From an uncultured Phycisphaeraceae bacterium (lineage in GTDB: Bacteria; Planctomycetota; Phycisphaerae; Phycisphaerales; Phycisphaeraceae): a stretch of 64,000 nt of DNA. The translations under genes were made by a program, and so were the position numbers. The notes beneath the pieces are model-generated. The model ran no database searches and was not told the DNA's origin. It worked only from the letters and a program-made list of their open reading frames with translations. Shown one piece after another: positions 17,020 through 27,842 of this stretch. Position 1 is the stretch's first letter. Each line of letters starts with the position of its first letter. Where the stretch lies: NCBI GenBank assembly GCA_964546335.1, contig CAZJJN010000006.1, forward strand, positions 12,120 through 76,119, in the 5' to 3' direction.

Positions 17020-19653
17020 TCAATTCTCTACCGCATCGACGGTTTCTTCCGTTTTAGAACCAGGCCTGAACAAAGCAGGCAGGATGGTGAGTGTACAGAT
17101 CAACACCACAGCCATGCCGATGGCAAGTACGGCCCCCATTGAGGCTGTGCCCGGGTGGGGTGAGACAGCCAGCGCGATGAAGCTGATCAGCGTCGTGGCA
17201 GCACTGAAGATGACGCCTCGCGTGGTGGCTGTGTCGAGCAGGCTGACCTTGGCGTCGAGTGAGTCTCGGCTGCGCTGCACCATGTGGATGCCGTTGTCCA
17301 CGCCGATACCTAAAAGCAAAGGCAACGCGATGACATTGGCAAAGTTGAGCTGAATATCCAACAGCACCATCAGGCCTGCCGTGAGCGCACCGCCTGCGAT
17401 CAAAGGCAGCAGCACCGCAACAGTCAGTTTGATGTTGCGCAGTTGGATCAGCAGGATCACCACAATGGCGATCATGGCATACACCAGGGCCAGCTCAAAC
17501 GCATTGACGATGGCGGCAGCAGCAAGCACTTCAATGATGGGCTGGCCTGTCGCGGCAGGGAATTTATCAATGATCGAATAGACGAACTGAAGTCGTTGCC
17601 CATCATCACTCAGGTCGCCGGAGGGAAACACCTTGATGGCAAAAACATCGTCCTTGCTCACCCAGCGCTGACGCTCGGAGGCAGGGATGGTGTCAATCGA
17701 CATCGGCTGGGGCGATAGCCGCAACGCAAAGTCATTTAATGCGACAGGTAAGCCGGTAAGCACTGCATTTTGGGATTGCTTGAGGAAAGCGAGCTGCGCA
17801 TCCTCAGGCAGAGCATTCAGATGCATCAGCCAGGTTTGAAAAGCGCTGGCAGTTTGACCGGCAGGGGAGTTGCTGGAGTTGTCGGCGATTTGTTTAAGCC
17901 GGGCAATCAGGCTTGGAGTCGTCGTCTGGATACGCGCGACATCCTTCCTGGTCGGTTCTCGAAGCGACAGTTCAGTATTACGCCAACCCTGACTGGCAAT
18001 TTGCTCAATGATGTTCAACCGCTGTTGTTGATTGTCAGGGATGAAATCAAAAATGCTCCGCGTGGTATCGACGAACTCGTTCTTTTCAAGCTTTGCGATG
18101 GTCTGCCTGGCTTGTTCCTTGCCTTGAACGAGGATTGTCGCGCTCCAGTAGTTGGCGGCATTCTGTGCAGCCAGGCTGCGCATCGCGCTGACAGACTCGG
18201 CCGACTGAAGTTTCAAATCAAGCGGATCGGAGTTGAAACGAAGTTTGGGAATCGCAGCCAGCGAAGCCAGGCTGATGATTGAAACGATGATGAGCACGGT
18301 GCGAGGGTGACTGGCTGGGATGGCTTGCACCGTGTTGAGCCAGCGGGGTGGCGTGGAGGGTTTTTCCTTATGTACTGCATCACCCGTCCAGTGAACGATG
18401 GAAGGAATGAGCAGCAGCGTCAGTGCGAAGCTGATAGCCATGCCGCCGCCGGCGATGATGCCCAGTTCAGATACGCCGATGAACGAGGTGGGGACGAAGG
18501 AAAGGAAACCGACGATAGTGGACAGGGCACAGAGCCCCAGTGTTTTCCACTTCACCAGGGTGGTGTGTTTGAGTGCTTCCAGTCGGGGTGTGCCACGCTT
18601 GCGGATCGCGCGGTAGCGCAGGTTGTAATGGATGGCAAAGTCCACACCCAGGCCGACGTACAACAGCGCAAACGCCAGTGAGATCAGGTTCAGGCGACCG
18701 ACCACCAATGCTGCGAAGCCAGCGGTCATGATCAGGCCAATGATGAGCGTAAAAAGCGTGATCCACACGAAACGCAGCGAGCGGAAAGCCAGGTAGAGGA
18801 TGCCACCGATGGCCAGCAGGACGAGGATGCCTCCGATGCGCATGCCTGACAGTGCAGACGAAAGTTCTTCGTAGGCCAAGGCTCGCTTGCCCGTGATTTG
18901 TATGCTTGTGCCAAGGTGTTGTTGTTCAGTTTCACGGGCATATTGATGAAGTGCATCCATCAACTCGCGATTGCCAGCCGGGGTTCGATAAGCATCCTCA
19001 GGTTGGCAGATGACGATGGCCTGGCGTTGATTGGCCATGACTTCGAGCTGCTGGCCTGCGAACGCGCGCGTCCAGTCCATCGCTTTCGATTCGCCTTGGT
19101 CGTCGGGTAACGCCTGGCTTATCCGTTGGAGAAATTGAACGGTGTGCGAGTCAGGCTTCTGCTCGCGGAAAGTGACACCCAGAGTCAGGATTTCCAGCAG
19201 CTTGGGCAAGCTGGCATCCTGCTCCAGGTTCTGGACGAGTTGTCGCTGAGGTTTGAGTTGCTGCTCCAGAGTCTGGAGTTTTTCTTCAGGCAGGAACATC
19301 AATGCCTGTTTTTGAAAGTACGGATCAGCCAGGGGCAGATAGACATGCTTGAATCGCGGATCTTTGGCAAGCTTGTGCTGCATATCAGTCGCAGCGTCAT
19401 GGCTCACAAGTGGATCGCCATTGACCACAGCGATGAATTCCTGCTCATTCTGTGGAAACTGCTTGCGATACTCAGCCATGGCCTGGCGAAAGGGCAGGTC
19501 AGGTGACAGCAGGGACGCGGTTTCCGTATCCACATGCAATTTGGGGATCATCCAAGCGGAAAGCGCAGTCAGCAGCACCGTGAAAATGATCACGAGGATG
19601 GAAATGGGGGATGCGAGTTTGGCCTCGCGCGGGCTGACTATGGGGTGACTCAT
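17020..19653 (-). CDS. MMPL/RND-superfamily transporter (HpnN-like lipid exporter candidate)
   Basis: About 877 aa. Two blocks of roughly 6 TM helices are each preceded by a large soluble loop. The blocks are internally duplicated ('LGVDFAIHY' and 'IGVDNGIHM'). The ATG at 19653 ('MSHPIVSPREAKL') is preferred over 19698. Confidence 0.8.
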   Translation of the reverse strand: MSHPIVSPREAKLASPISILVIIFTVLLTALSAWMIPKLHVDTETASLLSPDLPFRQAMAEYRKQFPQNEQEFIAVVNGDPLVSHDAATDMQHKLAKDPRFKHVYLPLADPYFQKQALMFLPEEKLQTLEQQLKPQRQLVQNLEQDASLPKLLEILTLGVTFREQKPDSHTVQFLQRISQALPDDQGESKAMDWTRAFAGQQLEVMANQRQAIVICQPEDAYRTPAGNRELMDALHQYARETEQQHLGTSIQITGKRALAYEELSSALSGMRIGGILVLLAIGGILYLAFRSLRFVWITLFTLIIGLIMTAGFAALVVGRLNLISLAFALLYVGLGVDFAIHYNLRYRAIRKRGTPRLEALKHTTLVKWKTLGLCALSTIVGFLSFVPTSFIGVSELGIIAGGGMAISFALTLLLIPSIVHWTGDAVHKEKPSTPPRWLNTVQAIPASHPRTVLIIVSIISLASLAAIPKLRFNSDPLDLKLQSAESVSAMRSLAAQNAANYWSATILVQGKEQARQTIAKLEKNEFVDTTRSIFDFIPDNQQQRLNIIEQIASQGWRNTELSLREPTRKDVARIQTTTPSLIARLKQIADNSSNSPAGQTASAFQTWLMHLNALPEDAQLAFLKQSQNAVLTGLPVALNDFALRLSPQPMSIDTIPASERQRWVSKDDVFAIKVFPSGDLSDDGQRLQFVYSIIDKFPAATGQPIIEVLAAAAIVNAFELALVYAMIAIVVILLIQLRNIKLTVAVLLPLIAGGALTAGLMVLLDIQLNFANVIALPLLLGIGVDNGIHMVQRSRDSLDAKVSLLDTATTRGVIFSAATTLISFIALAVSPHPGTASMGAVLAIGMAVVLICTLTILPALFRPGSKTEETVDAVEN

Positions 19654-19715
19654 GGGGCAATCAGTTCTTGTAGTCTGCGTAATGATAGCCGGTTGCACAG
19701 GCGTGATGAATTTGC

Positions 19716-19754
19716 AAAAAAAAAGGCCGCGGCTTCGATGACAAAGCCACGGCC
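19716..19754 (-). terminator. rho-independent terminator downstream of the giant surface-protein gene
   Basis: The minus strand reads GGCCGtGGCTTtgtcatcgAAGCCgCGGCC followed by T9. It lies 27 nt after the stop at 19781. Confidence 0.65.
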
Positions 19755-19780: not shown

Positions 19781-22700
19781 TCAGACGAGCAATTCGTCAA
19801 CCGACTTGGCACTGGCATCCTCCCACAAACTAAGCAGGTCATTGCTGCCTGAGTTGTTGGATTGTTCATTCCAGGCGGCCAACGCGGTGTAATCACTTGC
19901 ATCAGATGCCGAGTCGCTTGTGCCAGCTTCTGTCTGCGACAGATTGACTGCTGCACTGACAGACTGGCCATAGTTGGTAGCGAGAATACTCAAGTCCAGA
20001 ACATCGATGTCGCCATCGTTGTTGTAATCGCCTTGTCCCCATTGCCCTGTGCCACCATAGTTCGTAGCCAGGATACTCAAGTCCAGGACATCAACTACGC
20101 CATCGCTGTTGGCATCGCCGGGGAGGTTGACATAGATGGGCTGTGAGACGTAATCATCACCTGCGGTCCCATCATCATTGCCATCCAATGGATTGCCCGA
20201 CTGGTCTGTAATGTTCGCAGCCAACACCTTCAATTCGTAATGACCATACGACAAACCTAATCCGGATAAATCGAGTTCTGCACTATGAGTCAGCGCGTTC
20301 CACGTGAGTTGTGAGGATGAAAGATCAACAGAACCGCCGCCTTGCAGATTCAGTTCAAAATCACTGAGAGCAGGTGTATTGATCGCTTCATCAAAAGCGA
20401 CTGTCACCACGGTAAGCTGATCCGGACGGGCCGCATCATTTGGTCGATCAACCTGTGAGACAGTGGGCGGGAAAGCCTGGATCGTGATGGCAAATTCATT
20501 TGAGAACGGCGAATAGGTGCCATCGGACGCACGGAACGAACGGACGCGGTAACGTACTTCACTGCCGTGGGGATGTGCCGTCGTGTCTGTGTAGGTATCA
20601 GCCGTCGTTGATAACGTGTCAATCGTATTCCAAGTTCCGCCATCAATTGATCGCTGAACCTGGCCAAAGGCCTTCAACGATACATTGTCTGTCCAATCCA
20701 GTTCAATCACGGCATCATTGGTTTGTGTGCCAGTCAAGTCACTGGCCGCATCGAATGCGCCATTGAAGCCACCGATGGTCACAAGGTGTGCTTCGGTGCC
20801 ACTATTGCGTGTCTTGGCCAATGCATTGTCCGTGGTGACCATTTCGCCATCGGTGGTATTGATGTCGATTGCTGCAACGACCAGACCATTGCGCACGGCG
20901 ATGCCGTATCCGCTTGAGTCAGTACCGTTTTCGCCGTAGGTAAATGGCGTCCAGTAAGGACGTTCAGAGAAGTCGGCGGCTAACTTGGCCACATAGGCTT
21001 CACCACCCAGATAGGGAGCGAGTGGTTCACCTTCAACCAGTCGACCGTCGCGGTTATAAAGAGAATAATATGTTTGACCGGTCAGGTAGACATTCCCATC
21101 CACGTCGGCGTCGAGACCGACAGGCACCAACGTGTTGGTCTTGCCTGAATCAAGTCGAGCTTGAAGCCATTGTCCCTGGTCGATGGCACCCGTTGCCGGG
21201 TCGTAACGTCCCACCCAGGTGACGTGAGCGCTGCCGGAGTTGAAATCTTGGCTGTAGTCATCGATCACTGGTTTTTGTGCGCCAGTCAGTTGCAGATCGA
21301 TGGTTTGCGTGTCATACAGGAACATGGAGGCGGTGCCAGCGCTCTCGGCTGCGAAATACAACATGCCATCCTGACCGATGGTCACACGTTCGCCATGGCT
21401 GTCCGCCACGGTACCGGGTTGTGGGCCATTGGTGGCAGCCGTACCTGTCGGCCAATCATAAATCTCCCAGGCGTGAGTCGTCAGGTCTGCCGGGTCCCAT
21501 GCCCGCACGTTGGCCACCGTGATGGGTAACGTCGAACCCCCACCGATCTGTCGCACATTGGTACCCGTGGTGTAAACCAAGTCATGTGTCGCGCTGTAAG
21601 CCACGTCATTGAGAACCTGATCACCCACAACACGCATCGCGCGTTCATTGCCAGCATCGTCAAACAGGTCAAACCAGCCGATGAAGTTACTTGGATAATA
21701 AAGCACTGCGAGATGGTTGTTGCTGCCCAGATCAACGCGGTCGACCTGCGGGCTGTCCGCATCAAGCGTGGGGGATGCTGCATGCACTGCCGAACCGTCT
21801 GATGTCAACACGACGGGCCCATAACCTGCCACCGCGACAGCAATGCGATCATCACTGCCTACTGACACATCTTTCACGCTTCCAGGCAGGTAGGTCACGC
21901 TGAGAACCTGGGTGCCGGAACTGTTCAGACGGATGACCGCTCCGTCCCCACCACCAAGCAGGTTGTAGGTCGTGGCTGTGAAAGGCAGGTCTGCTGCGCT
22001 CAGTTTGCCCACCATCACAATCGTGCCATCGGATTGTATTTCGACGCCACCAGCATCGTCGTTGCCACTGCCGCCGATGTACGTGGCGCTCAGGATGTCA
22101 ATGTCGGTGTTGAACGCGTTGGTGGTCGCCTGGGCATAACTTGACCAGGGCGAAGTTCCCTCGACATTGAAGCTGCGCACCCGGTAGTAATAAGTGGTGT
22201 CTGCCAGCAAACCTTCGTCCACGTAGAGTTCCGTATCGGGTGCAAGGGTTCCCAGGCTGGTCCAGACAAGTTTGCCTGTCTGGTCATCGATGATGGCTCG
22301 CTCCAACTCAAAGCCAAGTTCGTCCGACGAGGTATCATCCCATCGCACATCAATGCGTTGTACGGGTGCAGAACCAGCTCGCACGCTTACGGGAGGCGTG
22401 GGGCCGGGCGGGTAGCTATCGGTGAACGCGGCATTACCCAGCACGCCACCGATCACATTCGATGAATATCCCAAGCCTGATCCACGAGCCCACTCGAAAG
22501 TCAAGGTCTCGAAGCCGTTCACATCCAGATAGACATCCTCAATCAGCGGAAGGATGCCACCTTCAAGTGAAACATCTTCAAACCACAGCGTCTGTTCGTT
22601 GGCCAAACCATAATCGCCATAAACACGAAGCGTGAATGTGGCAGATGACTGCAATGGATCAACGAAAGCGTCAAAGCGGAAGATGTCCTGATCGTCAGGT

Positions 22701-25507
22701 ACGTAATACGTGGCGCGGACGGGTACCCATGGATAATTGCTCATGGCAAAACCCACGCCGTCGGCATATACCGTGCCATCATCTGCCTGGAAGGCTGAGC
22801 CATCCCACCATTGATCGTTGTAGAGGCCCACGCGTGGGTTGGGGGACTCTTCAAAGTCCGTGGTGCGGAAGAATTGGCGTTGATAGGCAAAGCCGGAGCC
22901 GCGCTTCACTTCATATTGAAGAGACTTCATGTCAGACAGTGAAAGACTGTCGGTTGGCGTGGCCCAGTCCACATTGGTGTAACTTGAATCGCCCGAAGCG
23001 CTGTAAGCCCGGACACGGTAATACTGCTGCACGCCGGGTGTCAGGCCTGTGTCGAGATAGCTGTAGGTATCGCCGCTCACGGTGGCAATTTCAGTCCAGT
23101 TCACAGCATCGAGTGATCGTTCAACTTTGAAACCATCTTCGTTGCTGGAAAGATCAGCCCAATACAAGACCAGTTGATCATCATGGCCTGCAACTGCTGA
23201 AGCTCTCAAAGAAGATGGAGCTTGAAGGTCACCCGGTGCGGCAGCGACGAAGCTGACATCCCCCAGCACCACAGCCGCACTGCCATGAGATGTTCCATCA
23301 TAAAGGTCTTCCTCGATCGTAATGGTAAAGGTCTCGTGTCCGGCCAGATCCACGTAAATATCTTCGAGTGTGACATACTGCCCTGCGCCATACGACAACA
23401 GTCCTTCATAGTGCACGACAGACCGGACGCCGGCGCTGGCATCTGTCCCAGCATTGAAGAATGTGCCTTGGTTGTCCTCTGTGTAATCGGAAGTGATTTT
23501 CAGTCGGATCAGCCGATCGCTGGCGGTCGCGGGTGTCCCTAAGTTGGCATCGATGAAGGCATCGAAGTGCAGAACCTGATTCGCTGTATCGGGGGGCACC
23601 ATAAACGTCAGTCCTGTCGTAGGATGGCCCGTCCCCGTGTCGAACAGCATGCCCAAACCTGTGGCATATGTCACCATGTCATGGGTTTCGAACGCCCCGA
23701 GATTACGCCATTGGCCGAAGCTGTGAAGGATGGCGTTGCTGGCCTGACCATCATCAATGCGCACCAACGGCGTGGCTTCAGTGAAGTCACCTGTTGCCGA
23801 CGCGGTTGTGCCGGTGATCGGCCCCATCACCGCACCAATGTCGTCACTGTTCAAAGGCTGCAACTGGTAGAGATACGCTGTTCCAGATGATGTGGTTGAA
23901 TCTGTCCAACTACGTGGGCCCTCGCCTCCGCCGACATTGGTCAGAACTGTCCACGTTGCGCCGCCGTTATCACTTCGCAAGATATTCACACTGCTTGTGT
24001 AGTCTGTCTGTCGCCAGGACAGTTCAATCTGGCTGCCATCACCCGGAACAGCACTGGCTCGGAGATTAGTCACTGATTGGCCCGGCCCATCAGGCATGGC
24101 CGAGACGAACTCCGCATCACCCAGGACCACGCCGACATGGTTGACATTCACCGGGATGTACTGATCGGTGTCGAAGACAAACTTGACGGTGCTTTCATTG
24201 GTCAAGTCAATGTAAACATCATCGAGAATCGGCATCACCCCGTCGCCGTGCGACAGGTTGGACTCAAACAGAAGATTATTGCTGCCATCCAACACACGCA
24301 GACGAATCAGTGCATCGTCGACATTGCCTGCAGCACCCACGTTTGCATCCACGAAGGCATCGAACTTCAAAACGCGCTGGTCCACCGGTTGCTGCGTCAC
24401 GTCATAACTGACCGTCAAACCCGGTTGAAAACCATCTCCAAAGTAGAAGCCCACGCCCTCGGCATACGTTGTGCCATCCGCAGCCTCGAAGGCGGAACTG
24501 TCAAACCATTGCTTGGCATGCACGCCTGAGTTCACGTTCGTATCGCCAGATGAGATATTCACCGAGGCGGGTACCTGGTCCGAGAGATAAGGTGACACGC
24601 CCAACTCCACGCTGAACTCGCGGAAGCCGGTCCAGATTCGGCTGGTACGCTGATTGACATCATGCATGAAACCCACGGCTGTGATGTCCGTCAGGCTGGA
24701 AGTGCTGACGTTGTAGACAGCCGAAGCATCATCAAAGAGGATGTTGTTGCCTGACGGTGAATAGACCGCCCACATCTCGTTTTCGAGTGCAGCACCCTCA
24801 AGGAAGGTAACGCCGCCGTTGAAGGTGGTCTGCGAGACATAGAACTGTGAGCCGTTGCGAAGCAGGAAGCGGCCTTCACCACCCTCAAAGTTGTTGTCTG
24901 TTTCGATGCGCAGGACGTCGTCGGCGTCAAGGGCTAAAGGCTGTGCGTCATACCCGGACTGGAAGTCGGCTTTCTGCCAGAAGAAAATGGATGTGTAGTC
25001 AGCAAGATTGTTTGGCTGATACATGATCGAGCCATCGTCTGGCGAGTCATTTCGGATGCCTGAGTGGTAGCCACTAAAACTGTTGCTGCCGCCAGTATCG
25101 TCGTAGCTGATGCCTGTGGCTGCTCCGTAGAACGTGGCATTGGGCCCTGCGTAATTCGAAGTGGGCGTGATGGGGGTGACATCGTTAAACGGGAAGGCGG
25201 TCAGTTGGTCAATGGCGTCTGCCTCGCCGTCGAAGTCGCCTGACACTTGAATTTGGCTTCGGCCCCAGCTCTGCTTGCTGGTCACGTACTCACCGCCCCA
25301 ATCCACGACCGTGGTGGAGAGTAGCAATCGAGGTTCAAGGGTTTCAAAGCCAAAGAGTTGACACGTGCTGGCTGAATCTGGAAACAATGTAGAACGATGG
25401 CTATCACGACAACTCATGTCAATACTCCAATGAATAGAACCAAATGCCCCACCTGATCGGGACGAGCTTTGTCTGACTAAATATAACCCACATTTCATGA
25501 TCAGCAC
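19781..25507 (-). CDS. giant secreted/surface protein: N-terminal 'LEPRLLLS' motif, 3x (NPCBM-like module + FN3), beta-propeller region, FN3, Ig-like domain, dockerin
   Basis: 1908-aa ORF. An alternative start at M31 (nt 25417) gives 'MSCRDSH...FGFETLEPRLLLS'. FN3-like units show W/Y/YYRVR patterns (e.g. 'LSWRQ..YLYQLQP', 'YYRVRAYS', 'YYYRVRSFN', 'VRYRVRSF'). 'ATYIGGSGNDDAGGVEIQSDGTIVMVG' is an SBBP-type propeller repeat. The C-terminal duplicated 'D.N.DG.VDVLDLSILATNYG' is a type-I dockerin pair (nt ~19964-20122). Confidence 0.85.
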   Translation of the reverse strand: MLIMKCGLYLVRQSSSRSGGAFGSIHWSIDMSCRDSHRSTLFPDSASTCQLFGFETLEPRLLLSTTVVDWGGEYVTSKQSWGRSQIQVSGDFDGEADAIDQLTAFPFNDVTPITPTSNYAGPNATFYGAATGISYDDTGGSNSFSGYHSGIRNDSPDDGSIMYQPNNLADYTSIFFWQKADFQSGYDAQPLALDADDVLRIETDNNFEGGEGRFLLRNGSQFYVSQTTFNGGVTFLEGAALENEMWAVYSPSGNNILFDDASAVYNVSTSSLTDITAVGFMHDVNQRTSRIWTGFREFSVELGVSPYLSDQVPASVNISSGDTNVNSGVHAKQWFDSSAFEAADGTTYAEGVGFYFGDGFQPGLTVSYDVTQQPVDQRVLKFDAFVDANVGAAGNVDDALIRLRVLDGSNNLLFESNLSHGDGVMPILDDVYIDLTNESTVKFVFDTDQYIPVNVNHVGVVLGDAEFVSAMPDGPGQSVTNLRASAVPGDGSQIELSWRQTDYTSSVNILRSDNGGATWTVLTNVGGGEGPRSWTDSTTSSGTAYLYQLQPLNSDDIGAVMGPITGTTASATGDFTEATPLVRIDDGQASNAILHSFGQWRNLGAFETHDMVTYATGLGMLFDTGTGHPTTGLTFMVPPDTANQVLHFDAFIDANLGTPATASDRLIRLKITSDYTEDNQGTFFNAGTDASAGVRSVVHYEGLLSYGAGQYVTLEDIYVDLAGHETFTITIEEDLYDGTSHGSAAVVLGDVSFVAAAPGDLQAPSSLRASAVAGHDDQLVLYWADLSSNEDGFKVERSLDAVNWTEIATVSGDTYSYLDTGLTPGVQQYYRVRAYSASGDSSYTNVDWATPTDSLSLSDMKSLQYEVKRGSGFAYQRQFFRTTDFEESPNPRVGLYNDQWWDGSAFQADDGTVYADGVGFAMSNYPWVPVRATYYVPDDQDIFRFDAFVDPLQSSATFTLRVYGDYGLANEQTLWFEDVSLEGGILPLIEDVYLDVNGFETLTFEWARGSGLGYSSNVIGGVLGNAAFTDSYPPGPTPPVSVRAGSAPVQRIDVRWDDTSSDELGFELERAIIDDQTGKLVWTSLGTLAPDTELYVDEGLLADTTYYYRVRSFNVEGTSPWSSYAQATTNAFNTDIDILSATYIGGSGNDDAGGVEIQSDGTIVMVGKLSAADLPFTATTYNLLGGGDGAVIRLNSSGTQVLSVTYLPGSVKDVSVGSDDRIAVAVAGYGPVVLTSDGSAVHAASPTLDADSPQVDRVDLGSNNHLAVLYYPSNFIGWFDLFDDAGNERAMRVVGDQVLNDVAYSATHDLVYTTGTNVRQIGGGSTLPITVANVRAWDPADLTTHAWEIYDWPTGTAATNGPQPGTVADSHGERVTIGQDGMLYFAAESAGTASMFLYDTQTIDLQLTGAQKPVIDDYSQDFNSGSAHVTWVGRYDPATGAIDQGQWLQARLDSGKTNTLVPVGLDADVDGNVYLTGQTYYSLYNRDGRLVEGEPLAPYLGGEAYVAKLAADFSERPYWTPFTYGENGTDSSGYGIAVRNGLVVAAIDINTTDGEMVTTDNALAKTRNSGTEAHLVTIGGFNGAFDAASDLTGTQTNDAVIELDWTDNVSLKAFGQVQRSIDGGTWNTIDTLSTTADTYTDTTAHPHGSEVRYRVRSFRASDGTYSPFSNEFAITIQAFPPTVSQVDRPNDAARPDQLTVVTVAFDEAINTPALSDFELNLQGGGSVDLSSSQLTWNALTHSAELDLSGLGLSYGHYELKVLAANITDQSGNPLDGNDDGTAGDDYVSQPIYVNLPGDANSDGVVDVLDLSILATNYGGTGQWGQGDYNNDGDIDVLDLSILATNYGQSVSAAVNLSQTEAGTSDSASDASDYTALAAWNEQSNNSGSNDLLSLWEDASAKSVDELLV

Positions 25508-25637: not shown

Positions 25638-26825
25638 TTAATGGCCAAGTAGTTGCTCTTTCCGATATTGTCTTGGGGTCAGACCAGTCTCTTGCTTGAA
25701 GACCGTGCTGAAGCGCACGGGGCTACCAAAACCACATCTTTCTGCCACTTCTGCGATGCTGACCCCTTCTTGAGAGAGCAAGGCTCGGGCAGCTTCGACC
25801 TGACGTCTGCGAATCTCCTGAAAGACGCTGTGGCCAACTTCTTTACGAAAGACACGGTCAAGATAAGTTCTTGAACATTGAACCTGCTCCAGCACATCTT
25901 CCACGGTACAGTGATGGGTCGCATTTTCACGGATATAGGCCATGGCTTGGGAAATTCGCGAGTTCTTGAAACGGATGAAACTCGTGGAGGCTCTGACTTT
26001 GACCCCTTTGGGTTGGATGATGGGCAATTTTGAAGGAGGAGATCCCTCCATCATTCGTTCCAATTGTCTGGCAGCCTGCACGCCAACTTCCTCATAGGGC
26101 AAATAGACCGCAGATACAGACGGATAGGCCAGTTCCGTGATATTTTGGTCATCCTCAGCAGCCAGGACACAGATTTCTTCAGGGATCGCGATGCCAGCCA
26201 GTCTGCACAAATCGCTGCAGTGGTCGGCATAGCCTGCACTGCTGAACAGGATACCAACAGGTTTAGGCAAGCTTAAAAACCAATCCTGCATGACTTCATC
26301 AGTCTGCTCTTCAATCCTTGATGAATTGATATCGCAAGGGTTATCTCGATCTGTATAGAAACACTGAACTTTTAGGCCTCGATGCTCAGCGTATGCATGA
26401 AACGCTTGAGCCCGGCGCATGAACGCCCCGGACCAGGATTGCCCGAAAATGGCAAGCTCGGGTAGTTCTAGATCGACAAAATGCTCACATGCTATCTCTC
26501 CCATGGCCATATCGTTGAATTCGCTCCAGGCTACACGTTTCAACTCCAGTTGCTCACCATTTGCGGGGTGGCCGGTGCACAACACGGTTGGCAACCCCAG
26601 GGCAAGATATTTCCGCGCCTGCTGCATGCTGGTATTGAGCAGCAGCCCATCAGGTTGAAGTCGTTTTAGTAAATCCTCTGTGCCTTCTTTCAGGGGGTTA
26701 CGCGTCACCAAACGCCAAGGCAATGAGGGTCGGCTGTAACCGATGAAGCCTCGCAAAATGTCAATCATCACGCCGCCCCCTCCCACTGTGATGATGGCAA
26801 TCAACTTGTCTCTTCGGTGGGGCAT
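25638..26825 (-). CDS. XylR-like transcriptional regulator (periplasmic-binding-fold sensor + AraC-type HTH)
   Basis: 395 aa. The C-terminal 'SIAEVAERCGFGSPVRFSTVFKQETGLTPRQYR' is the AraC/XylS HTH signature. The N-terminal ~280 aa has a sugar-binding-fold length and pattern as in XylR. Confidence 0.8.
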   Translation of the reverse strand: MPHRRDKLIAIITVGGGGVMIDILRGFIGYSRPSLPWRLVTRNPLKEGTEDLLKRLQPDGLLLNTSMQQARKYLALGLPTVLCTGHPANGEQLELKRVAWSEFNDMAMGEIACEHFVDLELPELAIFGQSWSGAFMRRAQAFHAYAEHRGLKVQCFYTDRDNPCDINSSRIEEQTDEVMQDWFLSLPKPVGILFSSAGYADHCSDLCRLAGIAIPEEICVLAAEDDQNITELAYPSVSAVYLPYEEVGVQAARQLERMMEGSPPSKLPIIQPKGVKVRASTSFIRFKNSRISQAMAYIRENATHHCTVEDVLEQVQCSRTYLDRVFRKEVGHSVFQEIRRRQVEAARALLSQEGVSIAEVAERCGFGSPVRFSTVFKQETGLTPRQYRKEQLLGH

Positions 26826-27005
26826 TTGTCCAGATTACCTACAACTCAGAAGTGGCCCAGTGTGTGTTAAATCCATTAAATATTCGTGTGATGAATTCAG
26901 TGGTATCCCAGCATGAAGGCATTATATTCATATTGTCAGTAAGACAATTTATTTATCAAGGCATCTATGTCTGCCGCTCAGAATCAGCGAAAAAAAAAGG
27001 AGAAA

Positions 27006-27842
27006 ATGATGAAAAGTTTGGTAACAACCAGCGTATTGGCTTTGGGGGTCGCCGCGACTGCTCAGGCAGGTGTTCTGTTTGAAGATGGTTATTCAACCGT
27101 CTCTGGAAACTACAGTTTCGCAAACGATGGCACCCCGACAACTTCGGTTGGGACTGCCTTGTCCTACGGCCTGCTTGATACAAGCGGTGGCAGTCTGGAT
27201 TTCTCCATTTTCCAGACGAACAGCAATGATGCTGACAGTACCGCCACAAACGATGCCGACTTTACGGATGAATTTCTGGATAATGCCGACGTCATTTATT
27301 TCAGCGTTCTGATGCAGGTGCCTGATCTGGCTGCGTTCGGCAATAATGGTGGTTCCGTTTATGTAGGTTTCAATAACACAGGCAACAATCCCTCCAGCTA
27401 TGGACTCGGTCTGCAAGTGGATGGCGCTGGCAACATCACGTATGCCGCCGACACGGGTAGTGGCAGTGCCAACCTTGGTGGAAGCGTTGCCGAAGGCGAG
27501 ACCGTGCTTCTGATTGGTCGTATCACCGGCTGGCCTGATTCTGCAAGCTATGATACGCCTTCGAGTTTTGAGTATGTATTGAACCCGGATCCTGCTGCTG
27601 CTGAACCGGGTACTTGGTCAAGTGTCTCGGCAGTGGGTAATACCAATCAAGTGACGGCACATAAGGCTTATCTTCGGGTTAATGCCTTTTCCAACAGTTG
27701 GAATGATGACAACACAGCCCGGTTCCTGATCGATGAACTTCGCGTGGGAATGACTTGGGATGATGTGACACCCGTTGTTCCCGAACCAGCCTCTCTGGCC
27801 CTACTCGGCATGGGTGGCTTGCTGATACTGCGTCGCCGCTGA
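27006..27842 (+). CDS. PEP-CTERM sorting-domain protein
   Basis: RBS AAGGAG at 26998-27003, then ATG at 27006. Signal peptide 'MMKSLVTTSVLALGVAATAQA'. C-terminal 'VPEPASLALLGMGGLLILRRR' is the PEP motif plus TM plus basic tail. Confidence 0.85.
   Translation: MMKSLVTTSVLALGVAATAQAGVLFEDGYSTVSGNYSFANDGTPTTSVGTALSYGLLDTSGGSLDFSIFQTNSNDADSTATNDADFTDEFLDNADVIYFSVLMQVPDLAAFGNNGGSVYVGFNNTGNNPSSYGLGLQVDGAGNITYAADTGSGSANLGGSVAEGETVLLIGRITGWPDSASYDTPSSFEYVLNPDPAAAEPGTWSSVSAVGNTNQVTAHKAYLRVNAFSNSWNDDNTARFLIDELRVGMTWDDVTPVVPEPASLALLGMGGLLILRRR

Follow-up and report, generated by a model that had tools for sequence, protein, structure and literature searches.

A giant LEPR-XLL protein from an uncultured Phycisphaeraceae bacterium: domain architecture, a dockerin-like module without cohesin, and a probable role in glycan binding

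The locus and the giant gene

A single gene fills positions 19781–25507 on the minus strand of the 64,000-nucleotide stretch of DNA analysed here (the window, C6:12120–76119), which lies on contig C6 in the assembly of an uncultured Phycisphaeraceae bacterium (3.6 Mb, 85 contigs, 94% complete). It encodes a giant modular protein, whose architecture and likely role are the subject of this report. The frame is open from a GTG at 25507 with 0 internal stops, giving 1908 aa, and its GC content, 54.5%, is level with the 55.0% of the genome. An intrinsic terminator (19715–19754, minus strand) begins 27 nt past the stop codon and consists of a 13-bp stem (9 GC), a 4-nt loop and T9, bearing out the strong terminator proposed in a first-pass annotation of the window made from the sequence alone. 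On the 5′ side, in the same direction as the giant gene, lies the gene for a XylR-type regulator (25638–26825, minus strand), and divergent from the regulator is the gene for a PEP-CTERM surface protein (26967–27842, plus strand). The landmarks listed in the first-pass annotation were all found where it had placed them.

In public gene calls the sequence (P0002) starts at M31, an ATG at 25417–25415, with a product of 1878 aa. This ATG is likely to be the true start of the gene, since GGAG stands 7 nt upstream of it and the distance from the LEPR motif to the start is then as in the orthologues. Counted from ATG 25417, LEPRLLLS lies 28–34 residues from the start; the distance is 20–35 aa in the orthologues and 20–38 aa when related LEPR-type proteins are included. 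Residue numbers below refer to the 1908-aa frame.

The giant protein can be aligned from end to end, at 39–41% identity, with three proteins of other assemblies: P0003 (1838 aa), P0004 (1931 aa) and P0005 (1825 aa), the last from a metagenome-assembled genome labelled "uncultured Planctomycetaceae bacterium". Conserved columns are present in every domain across the four sequences. With three full-length orthologues conserved throughout, the alignment rules out an open reading frame (ORF) broken or joined by sequencing errors, a concern raised at the outset, and indicates that the architecture is under selection. A search of 30 genomes from the organism's own family or order yielded no orthologue, and the gene is therefore patchily distributed. 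The domain combination had been described as unusual; this did not stand, as the identical architecture occurs in the three other assemblies and mixtures of FN3, SBBP, NPCBM and dockerin domains are a frequent sight in the large proteins that the search retrieved.

Domain organisation

The architecture as mapped can be held with high confidence. From the N-terminus to the C-terminus it comprises a LEPR-XLL leader, a beta-sandwich, three pairs of a CBM51-like module and an FN3 unit, an SBBP-family propeller, a further FN3 unit, a Big_5 domain, a dockerin-like module and a tail. Neither Pfam nor NCBIfam detects a catalytic domain in the protein.

The leader sequence FETLEPRLLLS (aa 54–64), which the first-pass annotation had described as common at the start of very large planctomycetal secreted proteins, belongs to an already curated NCBIfam entry, the LEPR-XLL domain (NF012209, an N-terminal motif of about 24 aa with a curated cut-off of 17 bits). 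It scores 21 bits at aa 52–67 (25307–25354, minus strand) and 26.5 bits in a six-frame scan of the genome. Exactly three LEPR-XLL proteins are encoded in this genome, the giant protein on C6, P0007 on C36 and a third on C7. Like the other LEPR-XLL giants, the protein carries the motif near its start above the cut-off, is large and modular, lacks a catalytic core and comes from a planctomycete-type genome. It differs from those of about 8000 aa in its length of 1.9 kaa, in ending with a dockerin-like module and an acidic tail, and in being without RTX. The literature searched contains no description of the role of the motif, the name of which occurs only incidentally.

The next domain (aa ~65–305; 24593–25315, minus strand) falls within a region of about 250 aa that had been left unassigned. 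Sequence methods agree with this, as Pfam gives no match and a sequence profile retrieves only chance matches from the PDB, but structure prediction gives a beta-sandwich belonging to a large unnamed family. An AlphaFold2 (AF2) model, built on an alignment of seven sequences (the orthologues, P0011 and two copies of the domain inside the paralogue P0007, C36:9582–14867), is all-beta, with a predicted local distance difference test (pLDDT) score of 81 and a predicted template modelling (pTM) score of 0.81; model residues 242–262 (aa 306–326) form a disordered linker. Foldseek finds loose likeness only, at template modelling (TM) scores of 0.32 or below, to accessory beta-sandwiches of GH85 and GH50 enzymes, to CBM6 and to legume-type lectins.

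The family to which this domain belongs has no Pfam model and is large. An exhaustive profile search recovered 1,182 representative proteins at E<=1e-3, of which 754 also pass E<=1e-10; public proteins P0107–P0229 are among the family's members. Among the best 145 matches are 51 short proteins, 41 of which end in PEP-CTERM, and a typical member has about 290 aa and consists of a signal peptide, the domain and PEP-CTERM. One small member is encoded in this genome (C59:556–1452). The model for the flocculation protein PepA, NF033554, matches 11 of 50 short family members over their full length, albeit below threshold (the cut-off is 80 bits and the best score 45.5), and does not match the giant protein itself. 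The link between the family and PepA, a protein which ties exopolysaccharide to cells (PMC9850573), is suggestive only. The typical members of about 290 aa bear a weak resemblance to the PepA-type PEP-CTERM flocculation proteins of Aquincola and Zoogloea, whereas the domain described here heads a giant protein without PEP-CTERM, and its homology to PepA would be transitive and below the curated cut-off. The neighbouring PEP-CTERM protein encoded at 26967–27842 was tested as a further carrier of the domain and does not share it.

Three modules of a second kind follow, all on the minus strand: module 1 at 24092–24529 (aa 327–472), module 2, which has an inserted loop and 36% identity to module 1, at 23234–23740 (aa 590–758), and module 3 at 22412–22840 (aa 890–1032). 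In a 12-sequence alignment they are paralogous to one another and to nine counterparts in the orthologues, with 24–44% identity. The AF2 model of module 1 has a pLDDT of 89 and a pTM of 0.85, and in a Foldseek search of the PDB, CBM51 entries make up six of its eight top matches (ranks 1–5 and 8; TM 0.57–0.67 over 147–164 columns), ranks 6 and 7 being taken by the GOLD domain of p24delta1. The best CBM51 matches are 7jrm (ZmpB CBM51-2, E 1e-5), 7js4, 2vmi (GH95CBM51) and 2vng (GH98CBM51); across the CBM51 structures the E-values run from 1e-5 to 3e-4, with full-length matches at TM 0.67 and 16–21% identity. CBM51 corresponds to the Pfam family NPCBM, and binds galactose and blood-group glycans (PMC9513282).

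The modules resemble the CBM51 modules of C. perfringens (2vmi, 2vng, 7jrm) in being beta-sandwiches of about 145 aa with the same order of strand motifs. They differ from them in being free of an enzyme, in occurring as three tandem copies with FN3 spacers, and in going undetected by sequence and profile searches. A hidden Markov model (HMM) of the module gives three matches in the genome, all in the giant protein and none elsewhere, and a database search aimed at the module returned few matches, namely the protein itself and one orthologue, within the limited sensitivity of a word-based method. Accordingly, no carrier of the CBM51-like family has come to light apart from this protein and its three orthologues.

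The FN3 units foreseen in the first-pass annotation are confirmed. Pfam FN3 (PF00041) is above its gathering score in two stretches, and a family-specific HMM, built from units 2–4 of the orthologues, places four units on the minus strand. Unit 1 (23840–24067, aa 481–556) is degenerate; it is recognised with an i-E of 1e-4 by the custom HMM, which was built without this unit, and its counterparts in the orthologues score 1e-13 to 1e-15. Unit 2 lies at 22958–23221 (aa 763–850) and is recognised by the FN3 HMMs, unit 3 at 22124–22396 (aa 1038–1128), with a best Pfam stretch at 1050–1126 (33.7 bits against 25), and unit 4, placed by the custom HMM, at 20483–20746 (aa 1588–1675).

Units 3 and 4 enclose about 450 aa that would form an SBBP-type beta-propeller (20762–22117, minus strand; aa 1131–1582). 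The earlier proposal of such a propeller is upheld by relatives, four of the six aligned homologous regions matching PF06739 (best 6e-6), but not by the giant protein's own copy, which reaches only E 7.1; the SBBP assignment would hold by homology. A propeller profile gives chance matches only in the PDB; T-cell receptor beta and antibody entries were among the chance matches obtained in the profile searches with this region and the N-terminal domain. P0007 on C36 contains a paralogue of the propeller, a 481-aa ORF on C11 consists of one alone, and C12 has one that matches weakly. An Ig-like domain had been proposed after the last FN3 unit. The Big_5-like domain found there (20180–20470, minus strand; aa 1680–1776) scores 18.7 bits with PF13205, below the cut-off of 23.6, although the orthologue P0004 carries a precomputed PF13205.

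The dockerin-like module and its setting

A type I dockerin pair had been placed at aa ~1796–1848, and a dockerin-like double EF-hand is indeed found there (19964–20122, minus strand; aa 1796–1848). It clears PF00404 by a narrow margin when excised (23.7 bits, the cut-off being 22.9), compared with 19.9 bits in the whole protein and 26.4 bits with its neighbours in the genome scan. Its two 12-residue loops, DANSDGVVDVLD and DYNNDGDIDVLD, both fit the Ca2+-ligand pattern, and the module is predicted to bind Ca2+. As in the type I dockerins of cellulosomal enzymes, a 12-residue loop of the form D-x-N-x-D-G-x-[VI]-D-x-x-D, followed by a helix, is duplicated, with the usual spacing between the loops and a C-terminal location. 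The dockerins of C. thermocellum have a Ser-Thr recognition pair at loop positions 10–11, whereas these positions are occupied by V-L here. The acidic, Ser/Asp-rich tail that had been noted beyond the dockerin is likewise present (19784–19957, minus strand; aa 1851–1908). It has 58 residues, among them 10 Asp/Glu, 12 Ser and 1 Lys, ends in ...NDLLSLWEDASAKSVDELLV, and has near-identical counterparts in the other two LEPR-XLL proteins.

The first-pass annotation took the dockerin to imply a cohesin-bearing partner, a view which the genomes do not support. No cohesin (PF00963) was found at E<=1 in the organism's own genome, and at E<=0.01 none of 31 genomes (its own and those of 30 family or order relatives, many of them complete) contains one, whereas dockerin-like modules (PF00404) occur in 28 of the 31, at 1–116 per genome. 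The cohesin/dockerin complexes ('planctosome') proposed for some freshwater planctomycetes concern organisms whose genomes do encode cohesins (PMC6461901). The literature searched holds nothing on dockerin, PEP-CTERM and Planctomycetes together.

The organism's own genome has 71 PEP-CTERM matches, an exosortase and 24 dockerin-like sites. About 20 of these sites stand directly before a PEP-CTERM signal (...VPEPASLALLALGGLALIRRR), a few residues apart, as at C20:5481–7106, C20:7779–10496, C63:1513–4620, C64:1853–2098 and C31:39294–39593. In the C63 protein (1036 aa) a sulfatase-like N-terminal domain is fused to the dockerin and PEP-CTERM. Unlike a cellulosomal dockerin, the module is therefore found in a genome and clade without cohesin and is usually fused to a PEP-CTERM anchor. 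The other clear-cut occurrences are in the three LEPR-XLL proteins, all of which end in Big_5, dockerin and acidic tail. This C-terminal cassette is 86% identical to that of the giant protein in P0007 on C36 and about 40% identical in the C7 protein. The cargo differs: the giant protein carries the CBM51-like array, P0007 a propeller, PKD domains and two copies of the N-terminal domain, and the C7 protein a subtilase.

Because there is no cohesin in the clade, and because the module mostly precedes PEP-CTERM or forms part of the LEPR-XLL cassette, the dockerin-like module of this lineage would appear to act as a membrane- or sorting-proximal Ca2+ module and not as a scaffoldin plug. The acidic tail common to the LEPR-XLL proteins may be an undescribed C-terminal sorting motif. 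A database search specific to the tail gave very few matches, again within the limited sensitivity of a word-based method. The tails at 19784–19957, C36:9582–10250 and C7:36084–36400 have in common a ...[ST]xLLxLW[DE]... motif and hydrophobic last residues (ELLV or ALLV), and the LEPR-type proteins P0003, P0086, P0011, P0235 and P0085 of other assemblies have similar acidic D-x-L-x-x-L tails.

Function of the giant protein

The giant protein is probably a secreted, non-catalytic, multivalent glycan-binding protein, and its role is most likely that of a surface or matrix adhesin of a planctomycete that possesses PEP-CTERM proteins and exosortase. Four of its domains are lectin- or CBM-like beta-sandwiches, three of them in a tandem array. 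Together, the N-terminal sandwich and the array of three CBM51-like modules would bind polysaccharide with avidity, the ligand being either the cell's own exopolymer, as has been proposed for PepA-type proteins, or external glycans of algae or particles. The FN3 and Ig units would serve as spacers which hold the binding modules away from the cell. Meanwhile, the dockerin-like Ca2+ module and the tail would form the cell-proximal or sorting end of the molecule, serving in retention or sorting with no cohesin engaged. It is an ordinary giant modular surface protein, typical of the large ones of planctomycetes and of a kind that is well known, and it is no component of a cellulosome-like complex.

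A number of observations weigh against this assignment. The likeness of the modules to CBM51 is structural only, and resides in a predicted fold. Pfam NPCBM (PF08305) matches neither the whole protein, nor the excised modules, nor the 12 aligned modules at E<=10; a module profile yields 0 matches to PDB sequences; and hhalign against a true NPCBM domain (P0015 aa 27–167, which scores 147 bits to PF08305) is non-significant (E 0.019, probability 2.5%). Membership of NPCBM at the level of sequence is accordingly rejected, these three tests all being non-significant. The first-pass annotation, which had described three NPCBM-like modules with FN3, was right about the FN3 units and, on the model, about the fold (CBM51, TM 0.67), but the sequence-level detection that the name implies did not follow: the modules are predicted to share the CBM51/NPCBM fold and do not belong to the Pfam family. 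The link of the N-terminal domain family to PepA, sub-threshold as it is, is driven in part by the signal and PEP-CTERM ends that both have in common. As to export, no hydrophobic Sec-type signal is recognisable before the LEPR-XLL motif in the giant protein or its orthologues, no PEP-CTERM (a C-terminal PEP motif with a transmembrane helix and a basic cluster) was found at the end of the giant protein, where the tail is acidic, so that it is not a PEP-CTERM protein, and the best match in the genome to the HlyD-type type I adaptor (TIGR01843) has 34 bits against a cut-off of 208. The putative propeller could hide an active site.

Other readings of the protein are all improbable to some degree, and are taken here in the order in which they survive. 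The first concerns its route to the surface. The LEPR-XLL leader and the C-terminal cassette (Big_5, EF-hand pair, acidic tail LLxLW...ELLV) might together define an undescribed route of export and anchoring, within which interchangeable cargo would be displayed between the leader and the cassette, and the 'dockerin' would bind a receptor other than cohesin, such as a surface glycan or the PEP-CTERM protein layer. This is unlikely, albeit not strongly so. In its favour, the three LEPR-XLL proteins of the genome have the cassette in common and differ in cargo, and LEPR-type proteins of other assemblies have acidic D-x-L-x-x-L tails of a similar kind.

It is also unlikely, and a little more so, that the propeller (aa 1131–1582) or the N-terminal domain is a cryptic polysaccharide hydrolase or lyase, with the CBM51-like modules targeting it to its substrate. 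Carbohydrate-binding modules are usually appended to enzymes, beta-propellers host several families of glycoside hydrolases and lyases, a propeller paralogue stands alone in the 481-aa ORF on C11, and the N-terminal domain has its nearest structural matches in parts of GH85 and GH50 enzymes. Those parts are, however, accessory beta-sandwiches, matched at low TM, catalytic families score nowhere in the Pfam and NCBIfam searches, and the comparison of the propeller with the PDB yielded nothing above chance.

Type I secretion is a more doubtful proposal still. The protein would here be a giant secreted adhesin, with LEPR-XLL as an N-terminal retention element and the dockerin and acidic tail as an uncleaved secretion signal. 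A Sec signal is indeed not recognisable, the acidic C-terminus ends D-E-L-L-V, and the dockerin-plus-tail cassette is common to all three LEPR-XLL proteins of the genome; furthermore, RTX is present at the C-terminus of a LEPR-XLL protein from Vibrio with a length of about 8000 aa (PMC10868602). The gene of the C7 paralogue is also directly 3′ of two ABC (ATP-binding cassette) exporter genes. Against this, neither an HlyD-type adaptor above the cut-off nor an RTX repeat was found, the giant protein giving no RTX match, and type I secretion is not favoured for this reason. No ABC exporter or equivalent transporter adjoins the LEPR-XLL gene on C6 or C36, the neighbourhoods of the three LEPR-XLL genes have no transporter type in common, and an MFP/TolC-like pair on C2 is without an ABC partner. 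The argument from the terminal motif is, moreover, one of general analogy with type I secretion signals. The C7 paralogue is a LEPR-XLL subtilase (C7:36084–45916, a 1948-aa frame); the two exporter genes on its 5′ side run in the same direction and encode fused transmembrane and nucleotide-binding domains (619 and 681 aa), and a second ABC pair lies further downstream.

Least probable is a cohesin–dockerin complex, cellulosome-like or of the 'planctosome' kind, with the dockerin plugging onto a scaffold encoded elsewhere: the two canonical Ca2+-loop patterns, the marginal Pfam score and the complexes proposed for freshwater planctomycetes speak for it, but a genome that is 94% complete and 30 relatives offer no cohesin despite the dockerin-like modules in 28 of the 31, and a module that normally sits right before a PEP-CTERM anchor in this genome is unfit as a free docking plug.

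On the preferred reading, as a glycan-binding adhesin, the giant protein adds little when taken alone, and its setting has wider implications. With dockerin-like modules but no cohesin across the clade, annotation of such modules is no evidence for cellulosome-like complexes. Two domain families lack a Pfam model, a widespread beta-sandwich of about 240 aa with at least 1,182 representatives and the rare, very divergent CBM51-like module, and both may offer an entry point to the glycans that these uncultured bacteria attach to.

The upstream regulator and the flanking genes

The XylR-type regulator was correctly recognised in the first-pass annotation as lying directly upstream on the same strand. 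It combines a Peripla_BP_3 sensor (79 bits) with an AraC-type helix-turn-helix (HTH) domain (HTH_18 77 bits, HTH_AraC 73 bits). No convincing terminator was found in the 130–220 nt between the regulator and the giant gene, so that read-through or shared control of the two is possible, and carbohydrate-responsive expression of the giant gene, as had been suggested, is plausible from this arrangement. Two findings make a particular tie between regulator and giant gene less likely: no XylR-type regulator stands near the orthologous loci L002 and L004, and of the seven XylR-type paralogues in the genome, five lie at most 1.2 kb from a PEP-CTERM signal, four of these in divergent pairs.

The proximity of XylR-type paralogues to PEP-CTERM signals in this genome exceeds chance, the random expectation being 6% per site and none of 20,000 simulations having reached five. 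Among the paired loci are the window's own (25638–27842), C37:18634–20909, C20:1644–3679 and C63:291–7022. The PEP-CTERM gene at 26967–27842 is homologous (E 4e-16) to the partner of the closest regulator paralogue, on C37, which indicates that regulator and PEP-CTERM gene constitute a duplicated unit of regulator and target. A similar arrangement is seen in relatives, where, within the 1.5-kb flanks that were viewed, a PEP-CTERM ORF adjoins eight of 30 regulator copies, seven of them divergently, in seven genomes that each represent another genus (loci L018, L021, L025, L026, L031, L034 and L037). We conclude from this gene order that the XylR-type class would control surface-protein genes in this lineage. 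In the window, the regulator probably has its primary target in the divergent PEP-CTERM gene, with which the giant gene may be co-regulated. The pairing suggests that sugars may switch the PEP-CTERM surface coat, and offers a testable regulatory link between the two.

A sixth paralogue of the regulator (C12:1067–4634) stands directly 5′, and in the same direction, of a gene for a 745-aa protein with a related propeller (E 6e-13), an arrangement which mirrors the order of regulator and giant gene in the window. An operator common to both intergenic regions was sought and rejected, the candidate repeat TTGTC-N5-GACAA occurring once only, no more often than by chance.

Beyond the terminator of the giant gene, by 27 nt and on the same strand, is the gene for an MMPL/RND-type transporter (17020–19698, minus strand). 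The strong terminator between the two genes argues against their co-transcription, and nothing was found to connect the transporter with export of the giant protein.

A perfect inverted repeat of 13 nt has its arms at 25441–25453 and 26816–26828. The arm GGTGGGGCATTTG (minus strand) lies 24–36 nt upstream of the likely ATG of the giant gene, and the arm CAAATGCCCCACC covers the start codon of the regulator itself. Shuffling produces a repeat of this kind in about 2% of cases (65 of 3000, with non-overlapping arms), and it may be due to chance; if one transcript spans the regulator and the giant gene, the two arms could pair within that RNA.

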